From the NCBI GenBank assembly GCA_017521025.1, contig JAFXEB010000003.1:55506-119505 (forward strand): a DNA stretch of 64,000 nt, read 5' to 3'. Shown here piece after piece: positions 10,164 to 50,477 of the stretch. The stretch is from Clostridia bacterium. GTDB lineage: Bacteria > Bacillota > Clostridia > Oscillospirales > CAG-382. Positions within the stretch are counted from its first letter, which is position 1. Each line of letters starts with the position of its first letter. The notes beneath the pieces are model-generated. The model was not told the DNA's origin. It saw only the letters and a list, made by a program, of their open reading frames with translations, and did no database searches. Position numbers and translations under genes: made by a program.

Positions 10164-10176
10164 GAGGCAGCAGAGT

Positions 10177-32502: not shown

Positions 32503-32508
32503 GAGCCT

Positions 32509-33471
32509 TTACTCTCCTTTTGGCATAAACTCTTCCCAAGAGAATCCTTCTCCGCATAGAGGCATAAACATAAACTTACTATCACCCAACTCAATAACAT
32601 CTCTTGTAGCAAGTTGCTTCGACTCCGTGATGTAATCCTCGTTCAAGTATGTAAGACCGCTACTATCACCAGGTTGCAAGAAGAAGTTCCTCTTCTTGGG
32701 CTCGTACACAATCAATGCATGCTTAATTCTTGAAATGCTATTATCGTCCGTAATCACAATTCTATTTTCTTCGCTTCTGCCTATAGAATTTTTTCCTGCG
32801 AAAATGCTGAAGCACTCACCAAAATGACAGCCACCAATGCAGACAAGCCAACCTACAACGGGTTCTGCAAAACGCTTAGGTTGATTTTGAGCAGGCGTAG
32901 AACCTGTAGCAGAACTAAAATAGCTCATTGTCTTTCCTTCGTTGCTTGCAGAAGCATTCTTTACCGCCTCCTTCAGCGAGGACGGCGCTTCATTCTGCTT
33001 GGGTTCTTCCTTCGGAGTCTCATTTGCCTTTACCGGTTCTTCAACAACTATCGGCGCATCACTTGCAGGCACAACATTTTCAGATTGCTTTGTTTGAGCC
33101 GCCACATTTTCCACAACATTACTTGCTTTCGATTCGCCGTTATTGTCAGAGTGAGAAGATGTCTGCCAAAAATCCAATGTAGGATTCTTCTTAAGAGGAG
33201 GAGTAGATTGGTTCTCCGGAACCTTCCGTTCCATTACATCAGTAGGCGTACTTCCATTGCCAAATTCAGATTGCGGAACTCTTGATGGAGTTTTGATTAT
33301 AGGCTGAACATCAGCATCTTTCTCCTTGCGGCCTCTTCCCCAAAAGCCCTTCTTTTCTTCTTTGACCGGTGCCGCATTTTCAGCAACCATAGCGGTCTCG
33401 CCACAATGCGGACAGGTGCTATAGGAATCTCCATCAAAGAAATGGCCGTTTTTACATCTAATTACATTCAT
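32509..33471 (-). CDS. Zinc-ribbon / disordered linker / C-terminal FHA-domain protein
   Basis: RCKNGHFFDGDSYSTCPHCG; low-complexity P/E/K/N-rich middle. The FHA-like C-terminus reads ...NSIGRSEENRIVITDDNSISRIKHALIVYEPKKRNFFLQPGDSSGLTYLN... Confidence 0.75.
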   Translation of the reverse strand: MNVIRCKNGHFFDGDSYSTCPHCGETAMVAENAAPVKEEKKGFWGRGRKEKDADVQPIIKTPSRVPQSEFGNGSTPTDVMERKVPENQSTPPLKKNPTLDFWQTSSHSDNNGESKASNVVENVAAQTKQSENVVPASDAPIVVEEPVKANETPKEEPKQNEAPSSLKEAVKNASASNEGKTMSYFSSATGSTPAQNQPKRFAEPVVGWLVCIGGCHFGECFSIFAGKNSIGRSEENRIVITDDNSISRIKHALIVYEPKKRNFFLQPGDSSGLTYLNEDYITESKQLATRDVIELGDSKFMFMPLCGEGFSWEEFMPKGE

Positions 33472-33485
33472 TATTTACCCCTCCG

Positions 33486-34283
33486 TCACTTAATCTTTAT
33501 AAGAGCAACAGTCATATTGTCTCTCGACTCATTACTGTTTTTCGCATTCTTTTTCGCCTTCATTTCAAGGGCTTGAATTGCTTCGCCGATATTGCTGAAA
33601 TTATCGACAATACGAGCAATTTCAGAATCGGAAACCACCTTGTATAAGCCATCCGACATTATGATTATTTTATCATCCTTCATAAGCTCAAAAGGATTTT
33701 CCGAATAATCAATCAACGCAAGATTTCCTATCCCAAGGAAACTGATCAGTGCCTCTCCACGAATATCTTCTTGCTTAAAATCTGACTCACCTATAAGTCC
33801 GGCATTCAATTTCTCAACAAGAACGGTGTGATAATTATGATCTTGAGTAAGCTGAACCATTTCTCCATCTCTTATCAAGTAGGCTCTGCTATCACCAACC
33901 GAACACCACATCAGTTTTTTCCGATTTATCAGAATAGCCACTAATGTGCTTCCCGCTTTTAACAGACCACCCTGCTGATTCTTTAGTTGAGCGATTGATG
34001 AGTCAGTCTTCTTTGCAACATCCACCATAAAATCCGTCTGATTGGAAATCACAAAGTTTTCTGCATATCGCGACAGGAAAGTCTGCACCGCCAACTCACT
34101 GGCGAGCTTTCCGCCTTCGTGACCACCCATTCCATCACAGACAACCACCAGGCCCTCGTCCTGCTTCAGAATATAGCCAAAGCTATCCTGTTGATCCTCG
34201 CGATCACCAATAACTGACAGCGCAGCCATCTGGAAGGCAGAGTTTTCATCTTTCACCAATTGTTGGTCGCTATGATATAGCAT
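33486..34283 (-). CDS. PP2C (PPM) family Ser/Thr phosphatase
   Basis: GDREDQQDSFG...VVCDGMGGHEGGKLAS...IIMSDGLY...DNMTVALI. Confidence 0.88.
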   Translation of the reverse strand: MLYHSDQQLVKDENSAFQMAALSVIGDREDQQDSFGYILKQDEGLVVVCDGMGGHEGGKLASELAVQTFLSRYAENFVISNQTDFMVDVAKKTDSSIAQLKNQQGGLLKAGSTLVAILINRKKLMWCSVGDSRAYLIRDGEMVQLTQDHNYHTVLVEKLNAGLIGESDFKQEDIRGEALISFLGIGNLALIDYSENPFELMKDDKIIIMSDGLYKVVSDSEIARIVDNFSNIGEAIQALEMKAKKNAKNSNESRDNMTVALIKIK

Positions 34284-34294
34284 TTAGATCCCTC

Positions 34295-35029
34295 CTATTC
34301 ATTCCAAACAGCTATCGCTGAATAATTGTCCATATTTTTTCCTTCGCCGTTTGTTTGGACAATCCTGATCATATTAGTCAGCCATTCTTCAACAGAACTC
34401 GCTTTCTTCAATTGTGCACACATTTCCTTCTCATCAATCAGTTCCCAAAATCCATCGGAGCACAAGAGGAACGCTTGACACTTCTTTAGAGGAATTGGAG
34501 CCATAAGTTCATACCTTGGCTCATCCCATTCAACCCCCATTACGCGCAACAGCGTGTTGCGATCAGGGTGGTACCTAATTTGCGCTTCCTTGATTTCTCT
34601 TGAGAGAACTAACATCTGCGGAATACTGTGATCCAACGTTCTTGTTTTAACCTTGTTTTTATAAAACACATAGCCCCTTGAATCACCGATATGCCCGATA
34701 TATGCGTTTCGGTCATCTGTAACCACAGCTACACCGGTGGTTTTCATTTTTCTTTTTGCATTACGAACTTTCTGCTCAGCCATTAGGATATCCTGAGACG
34801 CAGTAAATGCCTGGCCAATAAAATTAACAGCATCATCTGTTTTGTTGAATTGATCCTCAAACACCGCAACAACCAATGATGAGGCAACATCACCCATGCC
34901 GTGACCTCCCAATCCATCACAGAGAATATAACAGGTGTTTTCGCCGTTTTTGAAAACACCCACGGAGTCCTCGTTGATTTGACGACCACCTACATTTGTA
35001 AAAATTGCATGTTTGAAATTACCACTCAT
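34295..35029 (-). CDS. PP2C (PPM) family Ser/Thr phosphatase (second paralogue)
   Basis: GGRQINEDSVG...ILCDGLGGHGMGDVAS...LLCSDGFWE...DNYSAIAV. Confidence 0.88.
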   Translation of the reverse strand: MSGNFKHAIFTNVGGRQINEDSVGVFKNGENTCYILCDGLGGHGMGDVASSLVVAVFEDQFNKTDDAVNFIGQAFTASQDILMAEQKVRNAKRKMKTTGVAVVTDDRNAYIGHIGDSRGYVFYKNKVKTRTLDHSIPQMLVLSREIKEAQIRYHPDRNTLLRVMGVEWDEPRYELMAPIPLKKCQAFLLCSDGFWELIDEKEMCAQLKKASSVEEWLTNMIRIVQTNGEGKNMDNYSAIAVWNE

Positions 35030-35059
35030 ATTTTATCTCCTACAAACCTAACGCGGTCT

Positions 35060-35368
35060 TTATTTACACAATGTATTCGCTCTATTGATTGCTCTGGCTT
35101 GCGCCTCTTTGTAGAGCTTAGATGCCTCACGAATCGAACCCGAATAACTTTTAAGTGTTGTCTTCATCTTGTCAGTAGTAGATCCGGAAGAATTAATCTC
35201 ATCCCATTCCTTCTTGACCTGTTGATAGTCGTCGCCTTTCCATGTGCTTCCCACAGATAGCATAGCCGAATCAATGGAAGTCATACCTTTGTCAAGCTGT
35301 GCAACATAGTTATCAACCTGATCAGCTGCCGCCAGCATCTTTTGATGATTCACTTTGATATACGCCAT
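35060..35368 (-). CDS. WXG100-like small helical protein (candidate toxin partner)
   Basis: Start at ATG 35368 after AGAGGTG: MAYIKVNHQKMLAAADQVDNYV...SVGSTWKGDDYQQV... It has a central W-K-G motif and is about 102 aa. Confidence 0.7.
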   Translation of the reverse strand: MAYIKVNHQKMLAAADQVDNYVAQLDKGMTSIDSAMLSVGSTWKGDDYQQVKKEWDEINSSGSTTDKMKTTLKSYSGSIREASKLYKEAQARAINRANTLCK

Positions 35369-35381
35369 ATAGACACCTCTT

Positions 35382-35687
35382 TCACTTAAAGGCAGCAGCC
35401 GCCGAGGAAACATTTTTTTCCGTAACCTCGTACCCTTCATCAACTTGTTTGCGTATGAATGTAACCAAATCATTTACAACTGAGAACCGTGCATCCGCGA
35501 AACTACGCTTTATGTATTCATACTTATTGGCACAAGAGTTTGATGCCTCGCCTACCCAATTCTGCTGTAATGTGCGAATAGCGGAGTCAATATCAGACAA
35601 GTCATCCCTGATCTTCTTATTTGCAGTATCAATCTGATCGGCAGTATTGGAAACAACTGCTGTATTAATTAAGATAGCCAATCCCAA
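35382..35687 (-). CDS. WXG100-like small helical protein (start uncertain, probably TTG)
   Basis: ...IDTANKKIRDDLSDIDSAIRTLQQNWVGEASNSCANKY... contains W-V-G. The upstream part of the 181-aa track ORF is an alternative frame of the neighbouring gene. A GGGAGG site precedes TTG 35687. Confidence 0.6.
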   Translation of the reverse strand: MGLAILINTAVVSNTADQIDTANKKIRDDLSDIDSAIRTLQQNWVGEASNSCANKYEYIKRSFADARFSVVNDLVTFIRKQVDEGYEVTEKNVSSAAAAFK

Positions 35688-36141
35688 AACGCCTCCCACG
35701 CATTCTTTGATTTTTCTTGTTTGAATCACTCGATTTCTTATTTGAACTACTATTTTTGCTTTGTGACTGAGCTTTAGCCTTTGCTTCCGCCTCCGCCTTG
35801 GCCTTTGCCTCTGCCTCCGTTTTAGCTCTGGCTTCCGCTTCTGCTCGAGCCTTTGCTTCTGCTTGGGCTCTTGCTTGAGCCTCAGCTCTTGCCTGTGCCT
35901 CGTCCTCTGCGCGTTTTCTCGCAGCAAACTCCTCTGTAACTGCAGACAAATCCATGTTGTTGAGTTTCTGCTTTACAGATTCATACTGTTTCGCCGCAGC
36001 AATTACGCTATTTGCACACTTCTCATTGCCAATACCCTCAAAATCACTGCTTATACCACCGGCAATACTATAGAGCTCATCGATAATGCCCTGCAGCTCA
36101 TTTTTAATTAAGTACAGTTCGTACTGTGCATTTGCATCCAT
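35665..36141 (-). CDS. Helical protein with Ala/Glu/Lys/Arg coiled-coil repeat and basic tail
   Basis: 158 aa. Helical N-terminus MDANAQYELYLIKNELQGIIDELY..., then RAEAQARAQAEAKARAEAEARAKTEAEAKAKAEAEAKAKAQ. Confidence 0.6.
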   Translation of the reverse strand: MDANAQYELYLIKNELQGIIDELYSIAGGISSDFEGIGNEKCANSVIAAAKQYESVKQKLNNMDLSAVTEEFAARKRAEDEAQARAEAQARAQAEAKARAEAEARAKTEAEAKAKAEAEAKAKAQSQSKNSSSNKKSSDSNKKNQRMRGRRFGIGYLN

Positions 36142-36152
36142 ACGATTTCCTC

Positions 36153-37790
36153 CTAAAATTGTTCGACCACGTTGCGCTCCGTGTGATCAAAGTCATTAGC
36201 TGTTTCCTCTAAATATTTAGCGCAGTTTGAAATACGCCCACTTGATCCTGTAAGCAAATCTGCTTGTAATAAATTAAACAAATCACGCAAACCTACTTTT
36301 AGGTATAGTGAATCCATTTTGCGATCAAGGGCGCAGAGTCTTCGATTTACTTTAACAAGCCGATCCGCATATCCTCTCAATGCCGCCGTGTTGGCACGAA
36401 TGTATGGATGCATTGTTACATATGCATTGGCGATGAACCCATCAAATGCACCTATAACTTTAGCATCTCCGCATCCTTTAGATGCATCAATGTTTTTTAC
36501 ATTACTATCAATTTTTCTCCAAAAGGAGTCAATATCCAATCCATCAATTTCTATTTTGGATAATATGAAAGTAATAATCTTGTCATCGTCATTATCTGTT
36601 AATTGTCCCTTTGTAAAGTCAATTAAGCCCGATAGTCCAACGATGCTAAAATCACCAACTTTTAATGTAAACAAATCATCAAGATTGCTCAATCCAATTG
36701 TAGTAAGAAGTTTATCTACATCTTCCGCAGATAGATTTTGCACATCCATATATTTAACTAGGTACGCTATTATCAAAGCAAGAGTATCAGTGTCCGCAAG
36801 ACAATCATTGATCATTTCTTGGACCTCCAATTTCTCTCCAGAAAATACCTTTGCGATCAACGGGCACAGATATCCTGTGATTTTCTTTTTTTCTTCGTCA
36901 CTTGCATTGTTGACAACAAATGTCGTAAACTCGTGTAACATTTTTATAGATTCGTCCTCGTCAGTTTCAATGATAGTGGGATTCCCTTTATCATCAACAA
37001 CAATATTACCATTTTCATCGGTCATAAAGAACGAATTTGGACTATGGTGTTCACCGGTATTCGCAATTCCAAATCCTTGACAATACACTTGTTTCGAGCC
37101 AGGTATAGGAAAAAGCAATGCGTGAACATAGTCGGTTGACACGGAATAGGCAGTAATTGTATCTGCTTTATTTATGATTTTCGGTCCATACTTATCTATA
37201 AACTCTTGTGAAACACCTTGTCCATCATATGCAACGCATCTCGTCACTTTGTCAGAGGTAACGGCCACATACATGGCTTTATTCGCCCCTTTTGAATGTC
37301 CTGTAACGGTTATGTTGTCATACGGGAGACTTTTGATATACTCTCGCGCTTCTAATTGACAAGGGGTGTCTGCAACATTTAGACCTTCAATATTGTCACC
37401 CCATTCACCTTTTGTAGTACCACGAAAAGCGACAATTGCTTCGTTTGAATTATTATCCTCGGAAAAGCAAAGAGCAAGCGTTGTTCCCTCGGAATCTTTC
37501 ATAGTGTCGGTCAATACAAGATCTTTCATTTCACTTGACTTCAAATAGCGAATGATCCCAGCCCACTCTTTTGCACTAACATATTCAATAGAAGTATCTC
37601 CTTTTGATTCAAGGGTGGCAAGGGCCTTTTCATCAAAACAATTGAGGATTTTGGAAATTGTCATATTTTTTTGTCCTGCATTAATACTGGTAAAACCACT
37701 TATACCAGCTTCAGATGCAACGCTTGAGTTGAGATAGGTTAATTGCTCAATCATTCCCAAATGATTATCTGTTAGAACCACGAATGTCAC
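36153..37790 (-). CDS. Mbeg1-like/DUF2974 alpha/beta-hydrolase (lipase) with long C-terminal helical domain; candidate T7SS toxin
   Basis: There is no signal peptide. VAFRGTTKGEWGDNIEG... and the nucleophile elbow ITVTGHSKGANKAMYVA lie in the N-terminal half. The C-terminal ~250 aa look helical. It is flanked by WXG-like genes and a lipoprotein gene. Confidence 0.7.
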   Translation of the reverse strand: MTFVVLTDNHLGMIEQLTYLNSSVASEAGISGFTSINAGQKNMTISKILNCFDEKALATLESKGDTSIEYVSAKEWAGIIRYLKSSEMKDLVLTDTMKDSEGTTLALCFSEDNNSNEAIVAFRGTTKGEWGDNIEGLNVADTPCQLEAREYIKSLPYDNITVTGHSKGANKAMYVAVTSDKVTRCVAYDGQGVSQEFIDKYGPKIINKADTITAYSVSTDYVHALLFPIPGSKQVYCQGFGIANTGEHHSPNSFFMTDENGNIVVDDKGNPTIIETDEDESIKMLHEFTTFVVNNASDEEKKKITGYLCPLIAKVFSGEKLEVQEMINDCLADTDTLALIIAYLVKYMDVQNLSAEDVDKLLTTIGLSNLDDLFTLKVGDFSIVGLSGLIDFTKGQLTDNDDDKIITFILSKIEIDGLDIDSFWRKIDSNVKNIDASKGCGDAKVIGAFDGFIANAYVTMHPYIRANTAALRGYADRLVKVNRRLCALDRKMDSLYLKVGLRDLFNLLQADLLTGSSGRISNCAKYLEETANDFDHTERNVVEQF

Positions 37791-37811
37791 CTCCGATCAA
37801 ACACAAGCTGT

Positions 37812-38573
37812 TTATTTATTAATATAAACAAGCTCCCTTGCATAGTAAAATTTATCTGACAAAAAATCTTCAAATGTGCTTTTTTCAACTTGGTCGACCA
37901 GGCAGTCTTTTAGGCGTATAAATTGAACGGATGAATAGAGCGAATGATCCGAAAGGAATCTCTTGCTCATATTGATAAAATTTTGGAATTCGGCATCCGA
38001 ACATGCTATTCCATCTACTAATATCCAGATTGCCGCCTCTGTTGCTCCATCAAACGCATTTTCCAATTTGGGAATTGCAGCGAGGGTGGTTTTCGTTATC
38101 GTCGCGAATACTTTTATTTCTGCTGTGGGCAGGAACTGCTTCATTGCGTTACACACATAATTTTCATAATCTTTTACCACTGCAACCGCAATATAATCAT
38201 CGATGTATCCATCTTGTGTTTTGGTAACAGAAAAAGTATGGTTGTTGTCATCAATAGTACACATTGTCACATGCTCTGCATCAGACCAACTCTTTGCTGT
38301 ATAACTAATATACTTCACAGTAATACCATACTTGTTTTCCGCGTGTACCAGCATTTCTTCGATGGTTATTATAACTCTTTTCTGGGTAGAAGTTAACTCA
38401 GCGTATCCCGTTGGCAATCCACGTGCAATGAGTATTTCTTTTTGTCTCTCGTTGAGCAGGACATCACTCTGATTTACGTTTTGATTATTTATATTGTTCA
38501 TCGTACAACCACACACCCCAATCATAAGTAATCCCAGAATTATAAAAATGAATACCAATCTTCTTGTATTCAT
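37812..38573 (-). CDS. Lipoprotein of unknown function (candidate immunity to the adjacent lipase)
   Basis: MNTRRLVFIFIILGLLMIGVCGC signal/lipobox. It lies immediately upstream of the lipase gene in the same operon. Confidence 0.55.
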   Translation of the reverse strand: MNTRRLVFIFIILGLLMIGVCGCTMNNINNQNVNQSDVLLNERQKEILIARGLPTGYAELTSTQKRVIITIEEMLVHAENKYGITVKYISYTAKSWSDAEHVTMCTIDDNNHTFSVTKTQDGYIDDYIAVAVVKDYENYVCNAMKQFLPTAEIKVFATITKTTLAAIPKLENAFDGATEAAIWILVDGIACSDAEFQNFINMSKRFLSDHSLYSSVQFIRLKDCLVDQVEKSTFEDFLSDKFYYARELVYINK

Positions 38574-38620
38574 TCACAGCTCTCCTTGACACAAGTCAAA
38601 AGCCGTTTTATCGTTCTTCG

Positions 38621-38914
38621 CTACTGAAACAAATCGTAGAGATTACATCTTAAATCTTCTTCTGGCTCATTGCAATTGTTTCTTATAGTCACCAATTCAT
38701 GCCTAATTTCCTCTATCCTATCACAAAATAATGTCAATTCATCTACAGGCGCTGAAGAAATTCTATCTTTTATAGAGAAGCCAGATAAGACCTGATCCAT
38801 TTCCAATTCCAAGCAATGAATTTTCTCCATTAAAATTTCGGCATCTCTTTTAACGGACTCCACATGAGTGATAAGGTTATCATAGTCCCTTAATGTGGGT
38901 ACAATTTTCGCCAT
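38621..38914 (-). CDS. Small helical hypothetical protein
   Basis: Start ATG 38914 after AGGAAGGGA (MAKIVPTLRDYDNLITHVESVKRDAEIL...). About 97 aa, with no recognisable motif. Confidence 0.45.
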   Translation of the reverse strand: MAKIVPTLRDYDNLITHVESVKRDAEILMEKIHCLELEMDQVLSGFSIKDRISSAPVDELTLFCDRIEEIRHELVTIRNNCNEPEEDLRCNLYDLFQ

Positions 38915-38927
38915 GATTCGTCCCTTC

Positions 38928-39818
38928 CTATTCCCAAAATCTTCTTTTATTTCTTTCTGTACTAAATACATATTCTGCAGACGGTGGAAAACAGCTAAAT
39001 GCTATCTCAAATGCCTCTATATTAGGACAATACGAACCAGTTCTCTTCACTGCAAACACAACTTCTTTAAATGCATTTAGGTAGCGTTTTTCTGACAACA
39101 CATCAGAAAAGACCTCGGCCACAGTAATCGGTGGATTGTGAAAAGCTCCACAGCCAAATGCTCCTAAAACAATTGCCTCTACATCGTTCTCGATAGCGAC
39201 TTCAAAAATATTTCTTACTCTGCCGCCAAGAATTTCGCGTAATTGTTTTTCAGGATAAGTTGAATGCACTGCCAAAATCGGAGCGGCACAAGTCAACACA
39301 TCTATTGAATACCGGTCTTCTATATACTCCTGTGAGCTTTTCGAAGGGAAAACATTAGGATCATATTTACGATCCTCTCTAATAACTGTAACTCCCTTAG
39401 TATAGATTGTCCTGTCTGATGCAGGAAAGCACTCACCATATCGCCGATTCAACATTGATTTATGTGCATCATAGTAAGCACTCGCTTGTTTAGATATTAA
39501 ACATGGATATAAATTGCTCGCTCTACATAAATACTCCTCTTGCGCATTGGCTCCGCGCAGCACGCCTCCACCAGGTTCAACAGGATTTGCAAAATTAAGT
39601 ACGCAAGTTTTATGTCCTTCTTTAACTAATCGCCGTGCAGCGATCAATGTCAAGTTCTCTTCGAAGTGAATGTTTGATGCATATTCAGGTTTCTTACAGG
39701 ACATAAACCCTTCACCATAGACCGCTGTTGAATTAATCGCTTCTGACGTTTTACTATTAAGCGTGTAATTGTGCTCAATTACATACAAAGTGTCCTTGAT
39801 GATATCTATATTTGTCAT
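38928..39818 (-). CDS. TIGR02452/bacterial-type PARG-like macrodomain protein (ADP-ribose glycohydrolase family)
   Basis: VLNFANPVEPGGGVLRGANAQEEYLCRASNLY carries the PARG signature GGG-x7-QEE. VLGAFGCGAFHNPP is also present. The start is ATG 39818, 6 nt after GGAGGTG. Confidence 0.75.
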   Translation of the reverse strand: MTNIDIIKDTLYVIEHNYTLNSKTSEAINSTAVYGEGFMSCKKPEYASNIHFEENLTLIAARRLVKEGHKTCVLNFANPVEPGGGVLRGANAQEEYLCRASNLYPCLISKQASAYYDAHKSMLNRRYGECFPASDRTIYTKGVTVIREDRKYDPNVFPSKSSQEYIEDRYSIDVLTCAAPILAVHSTYPEKQLREILGGRVRNIFEVAIENDVEAIVLGAFGCGAFHNPPITVAEVFSDVLSEKRYLNAFKEVVFAVKRTGSYCPNIEAFEIAFSCFPPSAEYVFSTERNKRRFWE

Positions 39819-39848
39819 AACATTCACCTCCCACACCCTACCTCAATC

Positions 39849-40106
39849 TTACCGGGGCGTTCCACACTTTGGGCAAACAACATGGGCAGCATCGAACTGT
39901 GTAGCACAATTTCTGCAAATAGCTGTTCCGCGGTTTGCTCCAGCGTATGCATTGCCCTTAGAGTATGAACCGTAGGATACATCATTAGAATGAGAACCCC
40001 CGCGAGACATCTTCTTTAGGATGATACACTGTAAAACGATGACAACAGCAAGAAGAACTGCTAAAATTCCAATCAACACATAACTTATAACAAATTCAAT
40101 ATACAT
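39849..40106 (-). CDS. Small membrane-anchored zinc-ribbon protein
   Basis: N-terminal TM helix FVISYVLIGILAVLLAVVIVLQCIIL; C-terminal CRNCATQFDAAHVVCPKCG. Confidence 0.55.
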   Translation of the reverse strand: MYIEFVISYVLIGILAVLLAVVIVLQCIILKKMSRGGSHSNDVSYGSYSKGNAYAGANRGTAICRNCATQFDAAHVVCPKCGTPR

Positions 40107-40121
40107 ATTTCTATTACCCCT

Positions 40122-41261
40122 TTAGTCTATGTGAAACTTAAATTCTTCGTTAGCAAACCTAATTATAGATCCATCATTCAACAGTTCTTTTACTCCTGGC
40201 TGAGTTCTTCTTCCGTTAAGGTATGTACCATTCGTAGAGCCCAAGTCTACCACATAGAATTTTCCTTGATCCTTGATAATATCAGCATGTTTCCTGCTCA
40301 CATTATTGTTGAAGATGCGATAATCCGTGACCCCTTCCATCTTTCCAACTCGAAAAGGAAATTTATTTATGATAATCTTACCTTCTCTTGAACAGTCTTC
40401 AAGCCAAACACTTTGAGCCATTCGCTGCGAGCCTCTAAAAACTGTCACTACACCATTCTCATCTTTATTTACGGATATATCGCTGCGCTTCTGCCTTTCT
40501 GCATCAGTCTCTGACTTCTTTACTGTTTCCGGCCAAAACTCCGAATCGATTGTCGGTGTGTTTTTGGGGGCAGTATTTGTTGATCGAGATAATAATCGCT
40601 TGCCACAGAACGGGCAGATTTCCTCTGACGTGTTTACTTTAGAACCACAGGCAGGGCACAACCCGCTGCGATTGGTGTCACCTTTCTGTTGAAGAAGGGC
40701 TTCTGCCACTTTATCGCAATATGATTCTAACATTCCTACCGTATAGGCTGTAACGCTATTTAAATCCTGCACTAACATTTGAACATATCCAATGTCTTCC
40801 CCTGCTTCGAAGTTGCATTGTGCGACCGCCTCGAGAAGAAAAGACTTCAGATTCCCTGTGCTTTCAAAAGGTTGTAAGGGAACATACATCATATACACAC
40901 GCCAAGTAGAAGGATCTATGTATACAGCTTGTGCTGTCCACATTAAAAGATCTTTGCTGAAACGGTTTTTTTCTATCCCTTTGAGAATCAGAGCGATGTG
41001 TCTCAAAAGGACTACAAACAGGCGGCGATTCATTCCTTGAAGGTGCAAGAACTCAGATAACGGAATCAGTCCCTCTGTATTGTATGTTAAGTTGGTCTTA
41101 AATCCAGACGTATCAACATCAAAAAGAAGCAATCCTTCAACGGTGCCCTCAGAGATGGCATTAACCTCACGCTGATTTAGTTGTTGCCCTTTTTTTCCTT
41201 TGACCTCTCTTATCAATTTCCTCTTTCGCACATCTATCACCTCTAATCCATAATTGGACAT
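40122..41261 (-). CDS. Three-part protein: unknown N-terminal domain, zinc ribbon, C-terminal FHA domain
   Basis: CPACGSKVNTSEEICPFCG in the middle. FHA: FRVGKMEGVTDYRIFNNNVSRKHADIIKDQGKFYVVDLGSTNGTYLNG. Confidence 0.8.
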   Translation of the reverse strand: MSNYGLEVIDVRKRKLIREVKGKKGQQLNQREVNAISEGTVEGLLLFDVDTSGFKTNLTYNTEGLIPLSEFLHLQGMNRRLFVVLLRHIALILKGIEKNRFSKDLLMWTAQAVYIDPSTWRVYMMYVPLQPFESTGNLKSFLLEAVAQCNFEAGEDIGYVQMLVQDLNSVTAYTVGMLESYCDKVAEALLQQKGDTNRSGLCPACGSKVNTSEEICPFCGKRLLSRSTNTAPKNTPTIDSEFWPETVKKSETDAERQKRSDISVNKDENGVVTVFRGSQRMAQSVWLEDCSREGKIIINKFPFRVGKMEGVTDYRIFNNNVSRKHADIIKDQGKFYVVDLGSTNGTYLNGRRTQPGVKELLNDGSIIRFANEEFKFHID

Positions 41262-41320
41262 CAGCCTTTTTCCCTGTTAATTCTTATTCCGTTGCCTTGA
41301 CCTTTTCGATGAACTTATCA

Positions 41321-41919
41321 TCATATTTTTTTTAAAAGTTCCTTTTGGATTGTATTAACTTTCTTTCGCTTTACAGAGGTCAAAGAAACTTCCATCATAT
41401 CACTATGTGCCGTAATATCATAATGCAGTATTAAAGGAACGATCACAGCGATGTTCTCAGAAGATGTTGTATATACCTCATAACTGTCTTGATAATCCTT
41501 AACTAACATCGCTTTCTCTGCGATCGCAATCAGTTTGTCTCCTCTGTATATACATAGGTATAATCCCTTGTTGCCAAAGCCAACCTCGTATAAATAGTAT
41601 TCATTCGAACCAATTTTGAGAAAACGATATGTATAGGATTGCAGGAAACCTTTTTCGTTTTATTGCTTCCTGCTATACTTCCTAATAGTTCATCTTGTGA
41701 ATACAGTCTAAACTTCATTCTATCGATTAACGACGCACCATTGGTAGTGTCTGTCGGATTGTAATAAAGGCGATGTTTGTCTCCATTGAAATAATCCATT
41801 GTTATGTGCAGACACCCTTTTTCAAAGGGGGCAATTGCAGTACACAGCGTATTTTCACCCTTTGTAGCCATCCAAACCATATTAAAGCCTGTGCGTAGCT
41901 GTTCGATTTTAAAAATCAT
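41321..41919 (-). pseudogene. Single gene split by a -1 frame change at a GAAAAAG run (pseudogene, sequencing error or slippery site)
   Basis: The 129-aa ORF and the 62-aa ORF belong together. The frame of the latter is open upstream to ...NEKGFLQSYTYRFLKIGSNEYYLYEVGFGNKGLYLCIYRGDKLIAIAEKAMLVKDY..., and it opens exactly at the A5 run (T5 at 41651-41655 on the plus strand). Confidence 0.6.
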
Positions 41920-41933
41920 CTCAACATTTCTTT

Positions 41934-44372
41934 CTACTCACCAACATACACGGCACAATTCGCATAATATTTCCCGTCTTTTGAGACCACTTTAATGCTT
42001 GCTGATCCGGGACCATTAGCCACAACCTTGCCGTCACTAACGGATATAATACTTCCGTCGGAACTCGACCAGGTAAAATCATCTGCATCATAACCTTCAG
42101 GATACTCTATGCTTACCACAGCATTCTCACCGATAGATAGGTAGATGTAGTAGGAAGATATCACCATGTTTGTAGTACCGTTACTTTCATTGCCAGCGTT
42201 GTTTTCTTCCTGTTGTTCTTCTTCATTTATAGGAATTTCCAGACGCTCCTGCCACAACACAACCTCTTTTTCGGGAAGTATTTCAAACTCCACTGCTGCA
42301 CCAGGTGCATTACTACCTTCGGGTCCAACAATCGTCCATGTATATTTAAGGTTCAACTTGTTAGCCAGCGTATTCTTATCTGTCCCAATTTTAAGTTTTA
42401 CTATCGGAACATATCCATTAATTCCATACGAATGGGATGTTTTTCGTTCGATAATAAATGCATCATCCGTTTCCACCCATTCTGTATAGTATTCAAGCCC
42501 ATGTCTAGCCTTAACATTAACTGCTGCAGAAATATCTACGTTTATAAAAGGAATTGTACAAAATGAAAGTTGAGCACTTAGGTTCGGTCCTGCCTCAAAT
42601 TCAAGCTCTGCCTCCGCACCAGCCGAAGAATCTCGAGTGCAAGTTTTCTTTGTTTTTCCTGATTTATATTCTGCCTTTGTGTTGTTTGTAATAGAGGCTT
42701 TCACGGAAATCTCACCATTCAATTCCGCATAAAGACTCACTTCCAATGTTAGTGTGCCTACTCCTCCCAAGGAAATCGGAATAGAACATATCGTAAGTTC
42801 TTCCTCCAGTTTGCCCTTTACAGAAAGTGACACCGACGCACCATAATTCGTCTCAACTGTGAAACTCTCGATGCCCGTAGGAATTCCAGTATCGGCACCT
42901 AAAATCTTCGCTGTTTTGATCTTATATGTTGGTATAACGTACAGGTCTGTTATAGAAACAGAACCAACTATCTCATAACCTCCGCTAAACTTGTTTGTAA
43001 TATTTGGAATATTTTCCTCTCCCGACTGGCTTGTTACATATGGCTTGTTCTTGTCCGGAACAAAATTTTCATCACTCTTCTGCACCCCATACAAAGCGTC
43101 GCGTAACTCATCAGCTGTAATAACGCCCTTTTTATATGCCTCTATCGCCTCATCATTGCTGTAAGGATCAGACCCAAAAAGACTTTTATCTGGAAATACA
43201 CTTTTCTTTGAAAACCATTCGCCAAGTTCTGGACTAGCACCAGTCTCTGTCAGCAACTGTTCGATAGCCAAGGATTGGCTGCCCCATTGTGGGCTAAGGC
43301 TTACGGTTCCTTTGGTAAAATTAAATGAGGCAGTAAAAGACAATGCCTGATCCTTACTTGTTCCGATACCCAAAGGGATCACTGCATAGTCGGATTTATA
43401 ATTACCTGCTAAATTCTGCAAAGAATAGTTATTGTTCGAACTGGGCGAGTAAGAAAGACTAACTACACTAGGACCACTATTTGAGTTGTAGGAGACAGGA
43501 GACACGCCTCCACCTGTATGGGTAATTGTTACACCACTCGCAGGAACAATATCCTCAAACTCAGGAATTGCAACACCGGAATACTCTATTTCATCAAAAA
43601 CCTCATGGAATTCAGGTGTGCAGGTTTCGATGGTATATGTTCCATCGCCGTTAACCAATACACTTACCACTTTAATTGCAACACCATCTGGGTTTTCCGT
43701 GGTCCCCGGTGCAATTAAAACATCATCAATATTTGGTGTTAGATTGGATACAACATATTTGTTTTCACCATTGCTAACAATGTTGGATGTTTGTCGTTGA
43801 TCAGAAACTTCCTCATTAACCACTACCTTGTCTATGGGAGTTACTTCTTGTGTTAAATATAGGAACTTCGCTGATGATAATATGGATTGGCATTCTTCCT
43901 CGGTTACATATCGATCATAATCTAGGCCAGCAGGCACTATGTTGTTGGCAATTGCATAGGCCAAAGCCTTGTCTTCCTTTGTTTCGCCCTCATAGGTTGC
44001 AACATTAGAGCCAACAGCATAAACAGCGGTAATGGCGACATATTTCAGAGATACCAACTCATCTGGGTTGAATGTCTCTTCAGTAACAGGAAATACTTCC
44101 CACTCCACACACGATTGAACATATGTAAAGGCTTGATTAGATGCCTGAATATCTGTGAAATATGGTTCGGAACTGAGGCATTCATCCATGCCAAAACAAA
44201 TGGCCAACTTCTCCGCCCATTCTATTTTGGTGATATAATTTCCGTTGTCGACATTGTCAGTCCCATTGCCGTTAGACTCTCCATTATCAAATGAAAAATG
44301 TGGTAATGAGCAAGAAGATAATGTAGAAACCAACAATATAACAGCAAGAATTAAAGAAAGTAGCCGCTTCAT
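41934..44372 (-). CDS. Large lipoprotein with C-terminal Big_2 (Ig-like) domain, unknown function
   Basis: MKRLLSLILAVILLVSTLSSC lipobox. C-terminus: VVSIEYPEGYDADDFTWSSSDGSIISVSDGKVVANGPGSASIKVVSKDGKYYANCAVYV. Confidence 0.65.
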   Translation of the reverse strand: MKRLLSLILAVILLVSTLSSCSLPHFSFDNGESNGNGTDNVDNGNYITKIEWAEKLAICFGMDECLSSEPYFTDIQASNQAFTYVQSCVEWEVFPVTEETFNPDELVSLKYVAITAVYAVGSNVATYEGETKEDKALAYAIANNIVPAGLDYDRYVTEEECQSILSSAKFLYLTQEVTPIDKVVVNEEVSDQRQTSNIVSNGENKYVVSNLTPNIDDVLIAPGTTENPDGVAIKVVSVLVNGDGTYTIETCTPEFHEVFDEIEYSGVAIPEFEDIVPASGVTITHTGGGVSPVSYNSNSGPSVVSLSYSPSSNNNYSLQNLAGNYKSDYAVIPLGIGTSKDQALSFTASFNFTKGTVSLSPQWGSQSLAIEQLLTETGASPELGEWFSKKSVFPDKSLFGSDPYSNDEAIEAYKKGVITADELRDALYGVQKSDENFVPDKNKPYVTSQSGEENIPNITNKFSGGYEIVGSVSITDLYVIPTYKIKTAKILGADTGIPTGIESFTVETNYGASVSLSVKGKLEEELTICSIPISLGGVGTLTLEVSLYAELNGEISVKASITNNTKAEYKSGKTKKTCTRDSSAGAEAELEFEAGPNLSAQLSFCTIPFINVDISAAVNVKARHGLEYYTEWVETDDAFIIERKTSHSYGINGYVPIVKLKIGTDKNTLANKLNLKYTWTIVGPEGSNAPGAAVEFEILPEKEVVLWQERLEIPINEEEQQEENNAGNESNGTTNMVISSYYIYLSIGENAVVSIEYPEGYDADDFTWSSSDGSIISVSDGKVVANGPGSASIKVVSKDGKYYANCAVYVGE

Positions 44373-44439
44373 AGCATATCCTCCTCGATAAGCAGGTTAT
44401 ATATCAGGGATGAATCCATCCCATTAATTTCAAATTTAG

Positions 44440-44469
44440 GCAGGTGGGTGTGGGATCACACCCACCCGC
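44440..44469 (-). terminator. GC-rich hairpin after the WXG100 pair (attenuator or partial terminator)
   Basis: Minus strand: GCGGGTGGGTGTG-loop-CACACCCACCTGC. It pairs perfectly only on the minus-strand RNA, through a G-U pair. The following U-tract is weak (CTAAATTTG). Confidence 0.5.
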
Positions 44470-44482
44470 AGTGTATTTTGCA

Positions 44483-44782
44483 TTACTTAAATGCCTGTGC
44501 GTTGGTCTGAATTGCGCCTTCAGTGGATTCGTAGCTCTGTGCGGTGTTCACGAGGAACTTTGCGTAGGATTCAACAACATTCTTGTATTCCTCAAAGCGA
44601 GGCTTCATTGCATTCATAGCAGCTCTGATATCGGATGCTGCGTCACTCTTCCAAGTGGCTCCCAGGTCATTCATGCTCTTATTGATGTCAGCAAGCTTGC
44701 TGTCCAAAGTGGAGTTGATGTTGCGAACCTTCTCTGCGGTGTCAAGCAACACTTGGGTTGAAATCTGAATAGTATCTGCCAT
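44483..44782 (-). CDS. WXG100 family protein (motif variant W-K-S)
   Basis: 99 aa, MADTIQISTQVLLDTAEKV...LGATWKSDAASD...; size and helical-hairpin layout match EsxA-like proteins. Confidence 0.75.
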   Translation of the reverse strand: MADTIQISTQVLLDTAEKVRNINSTLDSKLADINKSMNDLGATWKSDAASDIRAAMNAMKPRFEEYKNVVESYAKFLVNTAQSYESTEGAIQTNAQAFK

Positions 44783-44796
44783 TATCTTCTTCCTCC

Positions 44797-45099
44797 TTAG
44801 TTGACCAGTTTGCGAGCCTCGGACACAACTGTATCCTGAGTGTCGCGATACGCTTTTGCGCTCTTTCTGAGAAAATCAGCATAGTTGAGCATCAAGGTAT
44901 GCATCTTTGCAAAGTCATCCTTGAAGCCATCAATCTGATTCACAAACGCCACATTGTCTTTTCCGCTCCATGTAGAGGCCATCGCATTTGTCTCAGAATA
45001 GAGCTGATCATACTGCGTCTTGTAATCGGCTGCCAAACTCTCAATTCTGCCTGCGGTGGACTCCAACTGTTCCGGGTTAACCTGAATTGTTCTTGTCAT
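44797..45099 (-). CDS. WXG100 family protein (EsxA/EsxB-like)
   Basis: 100 aa, MTRTIQVNPEQLESTAGRIES...MASTWSGKDNVAF (W-S-G). Confidence 0.85.
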   Translation of the reverse strand: MTRTIQVNPEQLESTAGRIESLAADYKTQYDQLYSETNAMASTWSGKDNVAFVNQIDGFKDDFAKMHTLMLNYADFLRKSAKAYRDTQDTVVSEARKLVN

Positions 45100-45183
45100 T
45101 TTTTAATGACCTCCTTATAATTTTATCAACATTAGCTCACGGAAGACGAGCTAATATATGAACATATAACAATCTGCCTATTC

Positions 45184-45435
45184 TTAGATAAGCATAAGTT
45201 TTGTACCGTTTCCAATCTCCAGTTCAAAAACGGTACCGTTAATATCGAGTATCTCTCCGGTTGTCTTGCGTGCGAGCACCGTATCTCGGGACGGTATGAA
45301 CTGTCCTTCTGATAGTTCAGATATCGCACGCTTTATCAGTTCCGTAACCTCAAATATTTGTGACTGGGTCGGGATGAAAATATCGTAGGACCTGTTGAGA
45401 ATTGGAATGTAAACATTTACAAGCACCTTGTTCAT
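45184..45435 (-). CDS. YukD/EsaB-like ubiquitin-fold T7SS protein
   Basis: 83 aa, VNVYIPILNRSYDIFIPTQSQIFEVTELI...GTKLMLI. It overlaps the essC stop by 4 nt. Confidence 0.7.
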   Translation of the reverse strand: MNKVLVNVYIPILNRSYDIFIPTQSQIFEVTELIKRAISELSEGQFIPSRDTVLARKTTGEILDINGTVFELEIGNGTKLMLI

Positions 45436-48400
45436 TCTAAATCAGCCCCTTTCTTTTCAGCCGAAAGCAGTTTTGCAAGAATCGGACGATTCCGGTAGAT
45501 GTAATAGCCAAAGTGTTTGCCAACATCTTCATACATTTCGCTTGTGATCTTGTTAATCTTAAATGCGAACTGATCTGCGACACCTTCACCTACCCAAATG
45601 CCATCTGCACCAATGATGTGCTGTTTATACCACTGATCGTATTCATACTTCTTTATCTGAGAAGCCGAATCGCAAAGCACAAAATGGATCTTATATATCG
45701 GATCTGCCTTGACCAGTAATGTCGCCAACTTATCCTTTGCATCATCGCTCAGTTGTTCGAAGAGTCGCTTTACGCCAAAAATGACATAGCAACGCTCATC
45801 GAACTGTTCCAGTACAGAAGCATCTAAATTTGCATCCTTGTACAGATTGTTTCGAAGTACCATTTCATTGAACATCTCCAAAACAATATCAGCAAAGTTT
45901 AACTTAGTCACAAATTTCTCACACTTGTCAAGTTCTTTCTCTGTATCCACTACCGTAACATGGCATCCTCTTGCAATAATAGGAACCAGTTCCTCCACAA
46001 AGTCGACCATTTCATGTGCGTCTTGAGAAAGCACAGGAAGAACGACTTTCTTTTCAAGGTTAAAGGTGATGATTTCAAGAGAATTCTTTGCCACGCCCAC
46101 CGGAATCGATGCCAAACCATTAATTTTTTGCTCAACGAACTCCGAGTCAACGATCTGCGGAAGAATCGGAATGGGCTTAGCCGTTACAGTTGTTTTAGCC
46201 TTGATACCTTCACAGAACTGACGAATGAAATTCTGTACATCCTGTTCCTCAGTACAATAGGCTGTCTGGAATTCATAAACTCGATCCAGTGCAACAAGGC
46301 CACGCCCTTTATGCTTCGAAGGAATTACGCCATCGTTCTTACCAACTATCGTTACATAGTCCGTTGCATCATTTAACTGCATAGTAAGCAACATTTTAAA
46401 ATTCTGCTGAACTCTGTAACGAACAGCATTTGAGTGCGTAGCTGTAACAACAAAGTAAATACCATATTTAACTCCGTCTCGTGTTAGAAGCGCAAACTCC
46501 TCCTGATAATCTTCCATTTGCTCCGCAAATCCGGAGAAGTTGTTCAAAACCACGACAATATTCGGCACAGTTTTTCCGCTGTTCTTGCAGTAGTTGGTAT
46601 AATCACCGCCATAAGAAGAAAACAAACTGCGTCTCGCTTCCATCTCCTTCAGCAACATTTTCAGCAAGTTGACGCATTTCTCATCATCAGATGCGGTTAC
46701 AACCCCACCAACATGTGGTGCAGAAGAAAACGCCTTTAGCGTCTCGGAGCCATAATCCATTAAATATAGATTTACTTCGACCGGTGTGTGATTTTTAATT
46801 AACGAATAACAGAGTGTGGTCGCAAATGTTGTCTTGCCGTTTCCTGTTGCACCAAAGACAAGGCAGTTACCCTCTGCGGAAAGTGGTATTGTAAGAACGT
46901 CTTGTTTTTGATTGAACGGGTCGTCATACTCACCCACAACTGGATTAAGCACCGTACCGTACGATCTCTTCGCATATTTTTCTTCCAACTGATCCACATA
47001 AACGTGGGAGGGAATCGGTTCCAACCACAACGTTCTCGCAGTAACACCTTCGTCAACTGCCAAATCCGAGAGGTACTTTACAACAGAAACAATTTGTTTA
47101 ATCTTGCTTCCGCTTGTTGCTTTTGGGTTTGGTTTAACACTAATGATCGGTCGCCCAAGCGAATCAACAACTTGTATGCTTGCATCAATAGGCTTCTCGA
47201 CAACATCACTCGGTTGATATTCCGCTCCACACCACGCAGACTGTCCCATCGCAAAAAGCTCGTTAAATCCAACTTGCAAGTAGAATCTACCCGTTTGAGA
47301 AAGTTCTGCGGCATCTGGACACTTTATCATATCCTGCGAATCGGACTTTTCCTGAACCTTCAAGCAGACTCTGAAACGGCTGTTACTCCAAATTTGGTCA
47401 TCAACAACGCCACTCGGTTTCTGCGTAGCAAGAATCAAATGAACACCTAGGCTACGACCAATTCTTGCCGCACTGATCAACTGTTCCATGAACTCAGGCT
47501 GTTGTGTCTTCAATTCTGCAAACTCATCCGAGATGATGAATAGATGTGGCATCGGATCGCTTACAATTTTTTCTCGATAAAGTTGTTGATACTTATAGAT
47601 ATCCATTGTTCCTTCATTAGATATCCTCCGTGCCTCGTTAAACACTGCCTGTCTTCTTCTAAGTTCACTTTGAATGGACACCAATGAACGAGTAATTGCT
47701 GCACCATCAAGATTCGTAATCGTTCCCGCTAGGTGCGGCAACTTAATTCCCTTGTCTGAATTTTCAAAAGCACCCGTCAAGCCGCCACCTTTATAGTCAA
47801 TCAGAATAAAGGATACTTCGTCAGGATGATAATTTACCGCCAAGGATAAAATATATGTAATAATGAATTCCGATTTGCCGGAACCGGTCATGCCAGCAAC
47901 CAATCCATGAGGGCCGTGATACTTTTCGTGCAGATCAAGCATAAAACTATCGCCATCCGCTCCGATGCCTATAGGGGTCTGCAGTGTCTTGGTTGGATTA
48001 TTCTCTTTCCATCTGGCGAGAGAGTTGAGATGCTCAACCTTACCAACATTGAACATTTCCAAGAATGTCATCATGTTGGGCAAAACAAAACTTTTCTCTG
48101 CAACATCAAGTTCAATGTTTGCGAGTTTTGTTGACATATTTTCAAAGACCATCTTGTTTGCAACATCTGCAGCAAAGGAAACTTGTTTTCCAGACGTATC
48201 ATCCTTGTCAAAGAGCTTAGAATTCGTTCCGTTAGCGTGTATGATAGTTCTTGTTTCTTTTGGGAAATCACTAAATTTGTCACCGGTGATGATTGCGGTA
48301 AAGCCGAGGTTATCTTCACTCAAAATTTGTTTTAAAGCCGTGCATTTTTTTCTTAATGTGTCACTAGTAATGATACAAACATAATACGGCGAAAACTCTT

Positions 48401-50006: not shown

Positions 50007-50322
50007 CTCTATCCTCCCCAGTATTCATTTGGCGTTCCAGCAAAAGAATTTGCTCCACAACGTTCGGATACTTCTTGACGAATTTCTTATTTCCTTTATC
50101 AAAATCATTATTACATTTAAAAAAGAACACTACAGCCAGAAACAAAGTCCATGTCATCGGCTGTAATTGCCGTTCAATCAACGATATCATTTGCCTACTA
50201 ACACCAACCTTGTTTGCAAGCTCCGTCTGTGAAACCCCCATCTCTTTTCTAAGATGCGGTAATGCCTGGGAAAGTATTGAAATCATTCGCTGCTGTTCCT
50301 CGCTGATTTTATATTCTGCCAT
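49996..50322 (-). CDS. XRE-family HTH regulator with C-terminal TM segment
   Basis: LRKEMGVSQTELANKVGVSRQMISLIERQ (HTH_3), followed by the hydrophobic segment WTLFLAVVFFF. It is the first gene of the island operon. Confidence 0.75.
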   Translation of the reverse strand: MAEYKISEEQQRMISILSQALPHLRKEMGVSQTELANKVGVSRQMISLIERQLQPMTWTLFLAVVFFFKCNNDFDKGNKKFVKKYPNVVEQILLLERQMNTGEDRDDS

Positions 50323-50411
50323 AAAATCAATTCACACCCTTCACATGCATATCCTTTTTGATATATCCACCTACATAAAGAAGCATCTATATACTTCCTA
50401 TGTTATTTCCC

Positions 50412-50441
50412 ATTATAGACCTTTGACTAACTGTTTGTCAA
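50412..50441 (-). promoter_or_regulatory. Near-consensus promoter for the island operon
   Basis: Minus strand: TTGACA (50441-50436), 18-nt spacer, TATAAT (50417-50412), about 90 nt upstream of the XRE start. Confidence 0.55.
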
Positions 50442-50454
50442 TATATTTGTAAAA

Positions 50455-50477
50455 TTTTGCAAAACTATTTTGCAAAA
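50455..50477. promoter_or_regulatory. Two copies of the palindrome TTTTGCAAAA just upstream of the -35 (operator candidate)
   Basis: TTTTGCAAAA at 50455-50464 and 50468-50477, 13 bp centre to centre. Confidence 0.4.

Follow-up and report, generated by a model that had tools for sequence, protein, structure and literature searches.

A bacterial-type PARG gene in the variable toxin/immunity cassette of a clostridial T7SSe-type island

The function of bacterial-type poly(ADP-ribose) glycohydrolases (PARGs) in bacteria without PARPs has been described as unexplored (PMC11833690), and the only functional lead for such enzymes, reported in 2025, is protection against an RNA-targeting ADP-ribosyltransferase (ART) toxin (PMC11833690). 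Here we analyze a PARG gene in a 64,000-nucleotide stretch of DNA from a Clostridia bacterium (contig JAFXEB010000003.1, positions 55,506 to 119,505), hereafter called the window, to which all unprefixed coordinates refer. The gene lies in an island of type VII secretion system (T7SS) genes, where it is a lineage-specific insertion in a variable toxin/immunity cassette, directly upstream of the lipoprotein gene that is the candidate for immunity to a lipase toxin. The features on which the argument turns are as follows.

38928..39818, minus strand: PARG, 296 aa, single domain, bacterial-type PARG (TIGR02452/PF10021)
26762..50322, minus strand: T7SSe-type island, all genes on one strand, low GC
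36377..39848, minus strand: variable toxin/immunity cassette with PARG, p97, the lipoprotein gene and the lipase domain at the N-terminus of the toxin; its limits are where DNA homology to the orthologous island L181 breaks off

The PARG gene and its secretion island

The PARG open reading frame (ORF) runs on the minus strand from an ATG at 39818 to a stop at 38928. A GGAGGTG Shine-Dalgarno sequence lies 7 nt 5' of this ATG, which was also chosen by gene callers in 10 independent metagenome contigs, and translation is unlikely to begin at the GTG upstream of it, at 39836. Ten contigs from different samples share the locus and encode a 100% identical protein, which NCBI lists as "TIGR02452 family protein [Clostridia bacterium]". 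An initial annotation, made from the sequence without database searches, had called the gene a PARG on account of a GGG-x7-QEE motif, and profile searches bear this out. TIGR02452 of NCBIfam matches with E=2.2e-51 (175 bits, cutoff 50) over model positions 7-265 of 266, and PF10021 of Pfam (PARG_cat_microb, the microbial-type PARG catalytic domain) with E=1.1e-34 (120 bits, cutoff 23.5), these being the only families matched. The best solved relatives in the PDB are the PARGs of D. radiodurans (5zdb) and T. curvata (3sig), at E ~1e-25 over ~220 residues, and sequence homology to solved PARGs spans residues 47-274 of the window protein.

The PARG signature consists of G83-G84-G85, VLRGANA and Q93-E94-E95 (39534-39572); it aligns with the motif of 5zdb and 3sig and keeps both consecutive catalytic glutamates. 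The diphosphate-binding loop, G219-AFGCG-224 at 39147-39164, is aligned to GAWGCG of the D. radiodurans enzyme. Loss of catalytic residues on careful alignment had been named in advance as a finding that would count against the PARG call; these residues are intact on alignment with 5zdb, 3sig and 48 homologues, among which both motifs show no variation, and of 98 PARG ORFs nearly all retain them. The window PARG showed no strongly hydrophobic stretch in a crude hydropathy scan, which is weak evidence, since the same scan missed the transmembrane (TM) helices of EssC. Matches this far beyond chance confirm, at the level of sequence, that the gene is an intact bacterial-type PARG and an additional member of an already known enzyme family, and its product is most likely catalytically competent and cytoplasmic.

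The surrounding island has a GC content of ~0.40, compared with ~0.49 in the flanks. In the direction of transcription it begins with a helix-turn-helix regulator, EssC with N-terminal FHA domains, a YukD-like protein and two WXG100 proteins. An 812-aa immunoglobulin (Ig)-like lipoprotein, p129, p62, a DUF6382-zinc ribbon-FHA protein and p85 follow; next come PARG, p97, a 253-aa lipoprotein, a 545-aa Mbeg1/phospholipase-like protein and p158; and the series ends with two more WXG100 proteins, two PP2C phosphatases, an FHA protein and two membrane Ser/Thr kinases. The initial annotation had the PARG gene embedded in a secretion/toxin island, and the minus-strand genes for EssC, YukD, four WXG100 proteins, FHA proteins, PP2C proteins, kinases and a lipase toxin agree with this. 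The T7SSe variant of Garrett & Palmer (2024) comprises TseA/A2, TseB, TseC, the kinase TseD, the phosphatase TseF, the Ig-like TseI and the DUF6382-FHA protein TseJ, together with small single-TM proteins (PMC11217815). Because the parts list of the island matches this set, we assign the island to the T7SSe type. The same paper on T7SS variants names kinases, phosphatases and FHA proteins and does not mention PARG. The window carries an unusually dense phospho-signaling set for one locus, with a tandem PP2C pair (33486-35029), a tandem membrane Ser/Thr kinase pair (26762-32502), one kinase having PASTA and Flg_new repeats, and a zinc-ribbon-FHA protein in addition to TseJ and the EssC FHA domains.

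A swapped toxin/immunity cassette

The neighbors of the PARG gene, in the direction of transcription, are listed below.

41321..41919, minus strand: p129 and p62, the other lineage-specific insertion, beside an Ig-like surface protein that has been replaced
40122..41261, minus strand: TseJ-like DUF6382-zinc ribbon-FHA protein, 379 aa (TseJ as defined in PMC11217815)
39849..40106, minus strand: p85, 85-aa small membrane protein with an N-terminal TM helix and a C-terminal zinc ribbon (TM segment; weak zinc-ribbon matches)
38621..38914, minus strand: p97, 97-aa ORFan with its own Shine-Dalgarno sequence, beginning 13 nt past the PARG stop
37812..38573, minus strand: 253-aa lipoprotein with a signal/lipobox-like N-terminus
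36153..37790, minus strand: 545-aa reverse-arranged lipase toxin with an N-terminal Mbeg1-like/phospholipase-like domain and a conserved C-terminal region (residues ~470-545, 36153-36377)
35060..36141, minus strand: p158 and the WXG100 genes 35382-35681 and 35060-35368, the toxin's three small downstream partners

Orthologous islands (L181, L182 and L183/L184) were fetched via TseJ homologues. A metagenome scan with TseJ alignment patterns returned generic FHA domains from soil and other metagenomes, with no TseJ orthologue among 80 loci, and although the structural model of TseJ was confident, a fold search with it gave FHA matches only and none for DUF6382. The three islands share the gene order of the window. 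In L181, L182 and L183, respectively, identity to the window is 90%, 87% and 77% for EssC, 94%, 87% and 83% for the STK659 kinase, and 82%, 65% and 60% for p85; across the same islands it is 90-98% for the WXG100 protein next to YukD and 76-95% for the PP2C proteins. PARG, p97, p129 and p62 are missing from all three. A T7SSe core component would be present in all loci of the subtype, and since these orthologous islands do without PARG, the enzyme is dispensable for the secretion system.

The boundaries of the change are sharp. In a blastn comparison of the window with L181, homology stops at 39848, at the p85 stop codon, and restarts at 36377, inside the lipase gene; protein comparison agrees, and in L181-L183 the spacing from p85 to the lipoprotein gene is only 62-97 nt. 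This break in DNA homology indicates that PARG, p97, the lipoprotein and the N-terminal toxin domain make up one swapped block. In the lipase toxin, compared with L181:9564-11171, only the C-terminal 84 aa are conserved (73% identity). Replacement of the N-terminal lipase domain together with the upstream lipoprotein is polymorphic-toxin behavior, shown here by a TslA/TslM-like toxin that belongs to a T7SSe and not to a T7SSb. No flanking repeats or mobile-element scars were found at the PARG-p97 insertion; short repeats occur at chance level only, and the junctions do not align.

TslA and TslM are reverse-arranged lipase toxins of T7SSs with immunity and Lap partners (PMC10730906, PMC13560087), and the 545-aa protein, with a lipoprotein gene upstream and three WXG100-like partners downstream, looks like a toxin of this kind. 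In such loci lipoprotein immunity genes are co-encoded with the toxin, Til1 being the precedent for lipoprotein immunity to a reverse lipase toxin (PMC13560087). The 253-aa lipoprotein is by analogy a candidate for the cognate immunity protein of the lipase, and in the related locus L095 a homologous lipoprotein gene lies directly upstream of a homologous lipase gene. The same loci are recombination hotspots and carry extra immunity genes thought to be protective in trans (PMC13560087). PARG thus occupies a recombination hot spot, at the place that T7SS loci use for immunity genes. Gaps of 30 nt (p85-PARG), 13 nt (PARG-p97) and 47 nt (p97-lipoprotein) separate the genes, each of which has a Shine-Dalgarno sequence, and no promoter or terminator was found between p85, PARG, p97 and the lipoprotein gene. 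This tight packing, with a ribosome-binding site for each gene and no terminator, indicates that PARG is expressed with the T7SS, and from its sequence context it is predicted to be co-transcribed with the T7SS genes.

As partners of PARG, the initial annotation had put forward the two small neighboring genes, and neither is convincing as such. The 85-aa protein is ruled out, since p85 is kept in the PARG-less islands at the identities given above; it is a conserved island component resembling TseH/TseK (PMC11217815). For the 97-aa protein the pairing is real but uninformative: p97 was co-inserted with PARG, and both are missing from L181-L183, yet p97 has only three matches, one of them p97 itself, among 1.84 billion representative proteins and no homologue in the ~100 loci compared. 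On account of this ORFan status we reject p97 as a conserved PARG partner. It gave no match in Pfam, NCBIfam or PADLOC. More broadly, p129, p62, p97, p85, p158 and the lipoprotein have no Pfam family, the weak zinc-ribbon matches of p85 aside, and the anti-phage models of PADLOC match none of PARG, p97, p85, p129, p62, the lipoprotein and p158.

A second hypervariable block lies at 41201-44423 and contains the 812-aa Ig-like lipoprotein (TseI-like), p129 and p62. The Ig-like surface protein is replaced relative to the orthologous islands, with no similarity to its counterparts in L181 and L182 and 29% to that of L183. What the initial annotation had described as a frameshifted gene is p129 and p62, which read as two ORFs 20 nt apart and are called alike in other samples; there is no evidence of a single disrupted gene. 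At the other scale, a phage-type integrase gene lies just upstream of the regulator/EssC end in orthologous islands (L182:857-1696, L184:431-1405) and is absent from the corresponding window end (50322-50909). The integrase in orthologues and the low island GC suggest that the whole T7SSe island is mobile.

PARG relatives and their ties to T7SS loci

PARG genes were surveyed in 80 species-representative genomes, and a locus was counted as T7SS-linked when EssC, WXG100, YukD, DUF6382 or a lipase toxin lay within 10 kb. Beyond identical copies, the nearest relatives of the window PARG are solitary genes for proteins of ~298 aa with 50-59% identity, placed in housekeeping contexts among teichoic-acid, transporter, cell-division, tRNA-methyltransferase and GTPase genes. 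Among 108 neighbor ORFs from 14 closest-clade loci, no family occurs more than 4 times and none is conflict-related. T7SS linkage is found in 1 of 15 members of the window's clade, the one being the window itself, and in none of the 44 other solitary PARGs outside that clade. Plasmid and phage collections held only distant homologues with <=40% identity, on a Deinococcus megaplasmid, on Lactococcus plasmids and in jumbo phages. Of the latter, Bacillus phage G (66193-67032, gp114/115) and Prevotella Lak phages carry a distant bacterial-type PARG at 32-34% identity. Some PARG homologues (P0036, P0074, P0103, P0087) are 430-480 aa long, with an extra ~160-aa domain, for which no Pfam match is recorded, on the N- or the C-terminal side of PARG; a CxC...CxxC zinc-ribbon-like tail closes several of these proteins.

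Such a distribution would be expected if the window gene were an ordinary solitary PARG with a general cellular role, for example in the repair of ADP-ribosylated nucleic-acid ends or the turnover of ADP-ribose conjugates, which landed in a recombination hot spot and has no tie to the island. The island center, moreover, is a hypervariable recombination zone that also acquired p129 and p62. We consider this rather unlikely, because the gene sits in tight operon packing with its own Shine-Dalgarno sequence and no terminator, occupies the exact immunity-gene position of a toxin cassette, and is matched by a second, independent PARG lineage whose strong T7SS linkage makes pure coincidence less likely.

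That lineage consists of fusions. About one third of the surveyed PARG genes encode larger proteins with the architecture PARG - SGNH/GDSL esterase - [zinc ribbon] - [FHA] - [SseB] - [Ser/Thr kinase], where brackets mark optional domains, and at least 1330 proteins of this kind matched the PARG-SGNH part in a database search. Examples occur in L025, L030-L033, L035, L043, L051, L052, L058 and L095 and as P0121-P0240 (e.g., L030:9962-13000, L095:10001-12676). Their catalytic PARG motifs are intact, and NCBI names them "TIGR02452 family protein" only. Nearly all are without a strongly hydrophobic segment in the crude scan, the PARG-SGNH protein of L045 being one of two exceptions. Of 27 fused loci, 12 have T7SS markers; among the 59 other PARG loci there is one such case (Fisher p = 1.2e-6). 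Linkage of homologues to T7SS or toxin loci had been set beforehand by the initial annotation as a test of its proposal; it is absent from the closest clade and present in the SGNH-fused one. Three fused loci read as follows.

L095: EssC ... lipoprotein - lipase - WXG100 - PARG-SGNH-kinase
L097: YukD - EssC - WXG100 ... WXG100 - WXG100 - PARG-SGNH
L099: TseJ - (16 nt) - PARG-SGNH - DUF805 - PP2C - kinase - Ig-like protein

Recurrent neighbor families at fused loci are WXG100, FHA, Pkinase, zinc ribbons, LytTR, TPR and Macro (PF01661, three members), and no ART family is among them. The window PARG resembles the fused proteins in catalytic domain, motifs and locus type (TseJ-like, WXG100, lipase toxin, PP2C, kinase), but it has no SGNH, FHA or kinase domain. 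Whereas the fused clade has SGNH C-terminal to PARG, the window protein ends at 296 aa with a single Pfam domain; its identity to the fused proteins is 38-46%, and in a neighbor-joining tree, computed without bootstrap, it groups with the solitary clade apart from them. Unless the window gene is there by coincidence, PARG activity has come to be tied to T7SS variants on two or more occasions. The genomic tie of PARG domains to clostridial T7SS loci, especially for the PARG-SGNH-FHA-kinase proteins, seems not to have been described: in the literature searched we found no PARG-T7SS linkage (TIGR02452, DUF2263 or PARG with type VII secretion) and no description of the fusions.

The fusions raise the question of whether PARG belongs to the phospho-signaling layer of the T7SS, made up of FHA proteins, PP2C proteins and Ser/Thr kinases, where it would remove or sense an ADP-ribosyl mark or an ADP-ribose-derived ligand and so tune assembly or firing. 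The joining of PARG with motifs kept to SGNH and often to zinc ribbon, FHA or kinase domains, and the T7SS markers around the fused genes, fit such a role. So do the gene arrangements: PARG-SGNH adjoins TseJ in L099 and also in L051, where PP2C and kinase genes adjoin it as well, within 10 kb of the L095 fusion no kinase domain was seen other than its own, and the window PARG lies 286 nt downstream of TseJ. The FHA domains of T7SSe EssC are thought to be phospho-regulated (PMC11217815), and some eukaryotic FHA domains are reported to bind poly-ADP-ribose (PMC3759693). For the window gene we nevertheless judge this role unlikely. Orthologous islands with the same signaling genes lack PARG, the window protein is a single-domain member of a different clade, that clade is otherwise never T7SS-linked, and no ADP-ribosyl "writer" was found in the loci examined. 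The regulatory ADP-ribosylation cycle on the secretion machinery, one of three options in the initial annotation, is likewise unsupported for the window gene by its absence from orthologous islands, and owes its remaining plausibility to the other PARG clade, whose members at T7SS loci are joined to FHA and kinase domains.

More broadly, though with considerable doubt, ADP-ribose erasers might form a recurrent accessory layer of clostridial T7SS loci that couples detection and reversal of ADP-ribosylation to the threonine-phosphorylation control of secretion. Such a layer would consist of a bacterial-type PARG, usually SGNH-fused and often with FHA and Ser/Thr kinase domains, and sometimes a MacroD-type gene nearby; it could act as a "sense, repair and retaliate" circuit, for instance on an incoming ART toxin, and in the window, a T7SSe island would have acquired the same activity independently, as a solitary PARG. 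If the fusions do link ADP-ribose removal to phospho-control of secretion, this would be a new input to T7SS regulation. Separately, canonical Macro-domain (PF01661) genes for 320-360 aa lie 1-3 kb from PARG in several loci (L011:4118-5077, L037:981-2018, L039:6778-7860, L043:8213-9244), which suggests a combined ADP-ribose-removal toolkit.

Possible protection against ADP-ribosylating toxins

The protective role of this family has already been proposed, and was shown in 2025 for distant members. SCO0909 and DRB0099, both bacterial-type PARGs, reverse the 2'-OH RNA ADP-ribosylation caused by RhsP2, protect E. coli from RhsP2 as well as the cognate immunity protein does, and also act on 5'-phosphate-linked ADP-ribose; solitary bacterial PARGs were accordingly proposed as defense enzymes (PMC11833690; Lu et al., 2025). 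The window PARG is like the T. curvata PARG, DRB0099 and SCO0909 in family (by hidden Markov model and PDB sequence match), in the GGG-x6-8-QEE motif and diphosphate loop, in being a single-domain cytoplasmic protein and in size. It differs from DRB0099, to which it is ~35% identical, in setting: DRB0099 belongs to a ligase/PARG/polynucleotide-kinase repair operon (PMC11833690), whereas the window PARG sits in a T7SS toxin/immunity cassette.

By analogy with these enzymes, we tentatively favor the view, with a probability of roughly 0.45, that the window PARG provides accessory, non-cognate enzymatic protection against ADP-ribosylating toxins. Family precedent, the immunity position in a swappable cassette, co-transcription and lineage-specific presence together point in this direction, and the closest clade, whose genes usually stand alone among housekeeping genes, is distributed as would suit a broad-spectrum protector better than a cognate one. 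PARG would have been captured together with p97 into the hypervariable effector/immunity segment of the T7SSe island and co-transcribed there. The enzyme would act after injection of an ADP-ribosylating toxin by a competitor, removing the ADP-ribose adducts and restoring the target; the adducts known for the family are ribose 2'-OH-linked and 5'-phosphate-linked ADP-ribose on RNA/DNA and poly-ADP-ribose. In this scheme we infer the substrate, the protective role and any role of p97. An orphan immunity function against the ARTs of competitors was the best supported of the three options in the initial annotation, its support being genomic context and family precedent, and the interpretation given there is partly supported as a whole. 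A PARG in the immunity position of a T7SS cassette gives the protection idea a natural genomic setting in Gram-positive gut bacteria, as does the fused PARG lineage, with its more than 1000 proteins and T7SS kinase/FHA modules.

The initial annotation had seen no ART in the neighborhood, and this holds on a wider search. No Pfam ART-clan family occurs in 22 island proteins, of which 18 were scanned directly with Pfam, while EssC, both PP2C proteins and STK659 were checked through the precomputed Pfam annotation of the identical locus L001; for STK1254, no ART-clan family is among the precomputed Pfam families listed for L001. Might PARG then be the cognate antidote of an unrecognized ART, encoded in the island, as p129/p62 or another ORF, or elsewhere in the genome, for example as an LXG-ART? 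Genes for T7SS effectors frequently lie outside the core locus, p129 and p62 are lineage-specific like PARG and p97 and missing from the orthologous islands, and p129, p62, p97 and p158 are without a family match. Even so, this is very improbable. Judged by size, an ART catalytic domain would not fit into p97, p85 or p62; p129 shows no H-Y-E or R-S-E motif by eye and no Pfam match; two conserved core genes lie between PARG and p129/p62, which belong to a different variable block; and cognate immunity genes normally abut their toxin. The single-sequence AlphaFold model of p129, with a mean pLDDT of 32.7, is too poor to speak for or against an ART fold.

Several points weigh against non-cognate protection. 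No ART toxin is encoded beside PARG, and the toxin of the cassette is a lipase, for which PARG is irrelevant. In none of 86 PARG loci is PARG adjacent to a recognizable secreted ART toxin among the 25 commonest neighbor families, to which the neighbor summaries extend, so that a rare ART neighbor could be missed. The closest PARG relatives are T7SS-linked in 0 of 14 loci and show no conflict-locus enrichment. The window was singled out for its context, which makes a chance insertion possible; the protective activity is known from two distant members at ~35% identity; and this reading does not account for p97.

The Tri1 gene, whose product acts against the type VI secretion effector Tre1, adjoins its toxin gene, and Tri1 also binds the toxin. 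Like Tri1 and Imm-ADP-RGHD, an immunity family for polymorphic ART toxins, the window PARG would strip ADP-ribose, and its gene lies in a secretion effector/immunity region, within 36377-39848. It is unlike Tri1 in fold, macrodomain/PARG as opposed to all-alpha ARH/DraG-type, and in having no ART neighbor: an adjacent ART effector would be expected of cognate immunity of the Tri1/Tre1 type, and the nearest toxin is the lipase. As no PARG was seen beside a recognizable secreted ART in the neighbor summaries of the 86 loci, the cognate pattern of Tri1/Tre1 is not observed there either. Enzymatic immunity paired with Tox-ART-RSE toxins, including T7SS-delivered ones, has been catalogued (PMC3482391).

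DarG, like the window protein with its predicted activity, is a macrodomain-superfamily hydrolase that reverses toxic ADP-ribosylation. Its macrodomain is TARG1/ALC1-like and is joined to a toxin-binding domain, and DarG always occurs together with DarT (PMC8120803), whereas the window protein is single-domain and matches PARG-type families only, and no ART-clan (DarT) family was found in the island. A parallel in position is with the Til1/Til2 arrays beside TslA/TslM, where an extra gene also occupies the immunity position in a recombination-prone T7SS cassette, beside a lipoprotein gene for cognate immunity and a lipase in reverse arrangement that has WXG100/Lap-like partners. Til arrays, however, are paralogues of the cognate immunity protein and bind the lipase, while the window PARG is an unrelated enzyme that cannot neutralize it.

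One possible ART link appears in the closest clade, where a DUF3990 gene lies within 6 kb of PARG in two loci. DUF3990 is a member of the Pfam ART clan (PMC7955679), and its presence near two closest-clade PARGs is suggestive but weak as a link. In L011 a DUF3990 gene with YHGS...GFYCT motifs and a gene for a 213-aa partner (9552-10232 and 8936-9577) are convergent with PARG and 33 nt from it; the same pair is found in L016, which is the same contig as L011, and in L012. In the second locus, the DUF3990 gene (L017:16308-16871) is ~5.4 kb from PARG.

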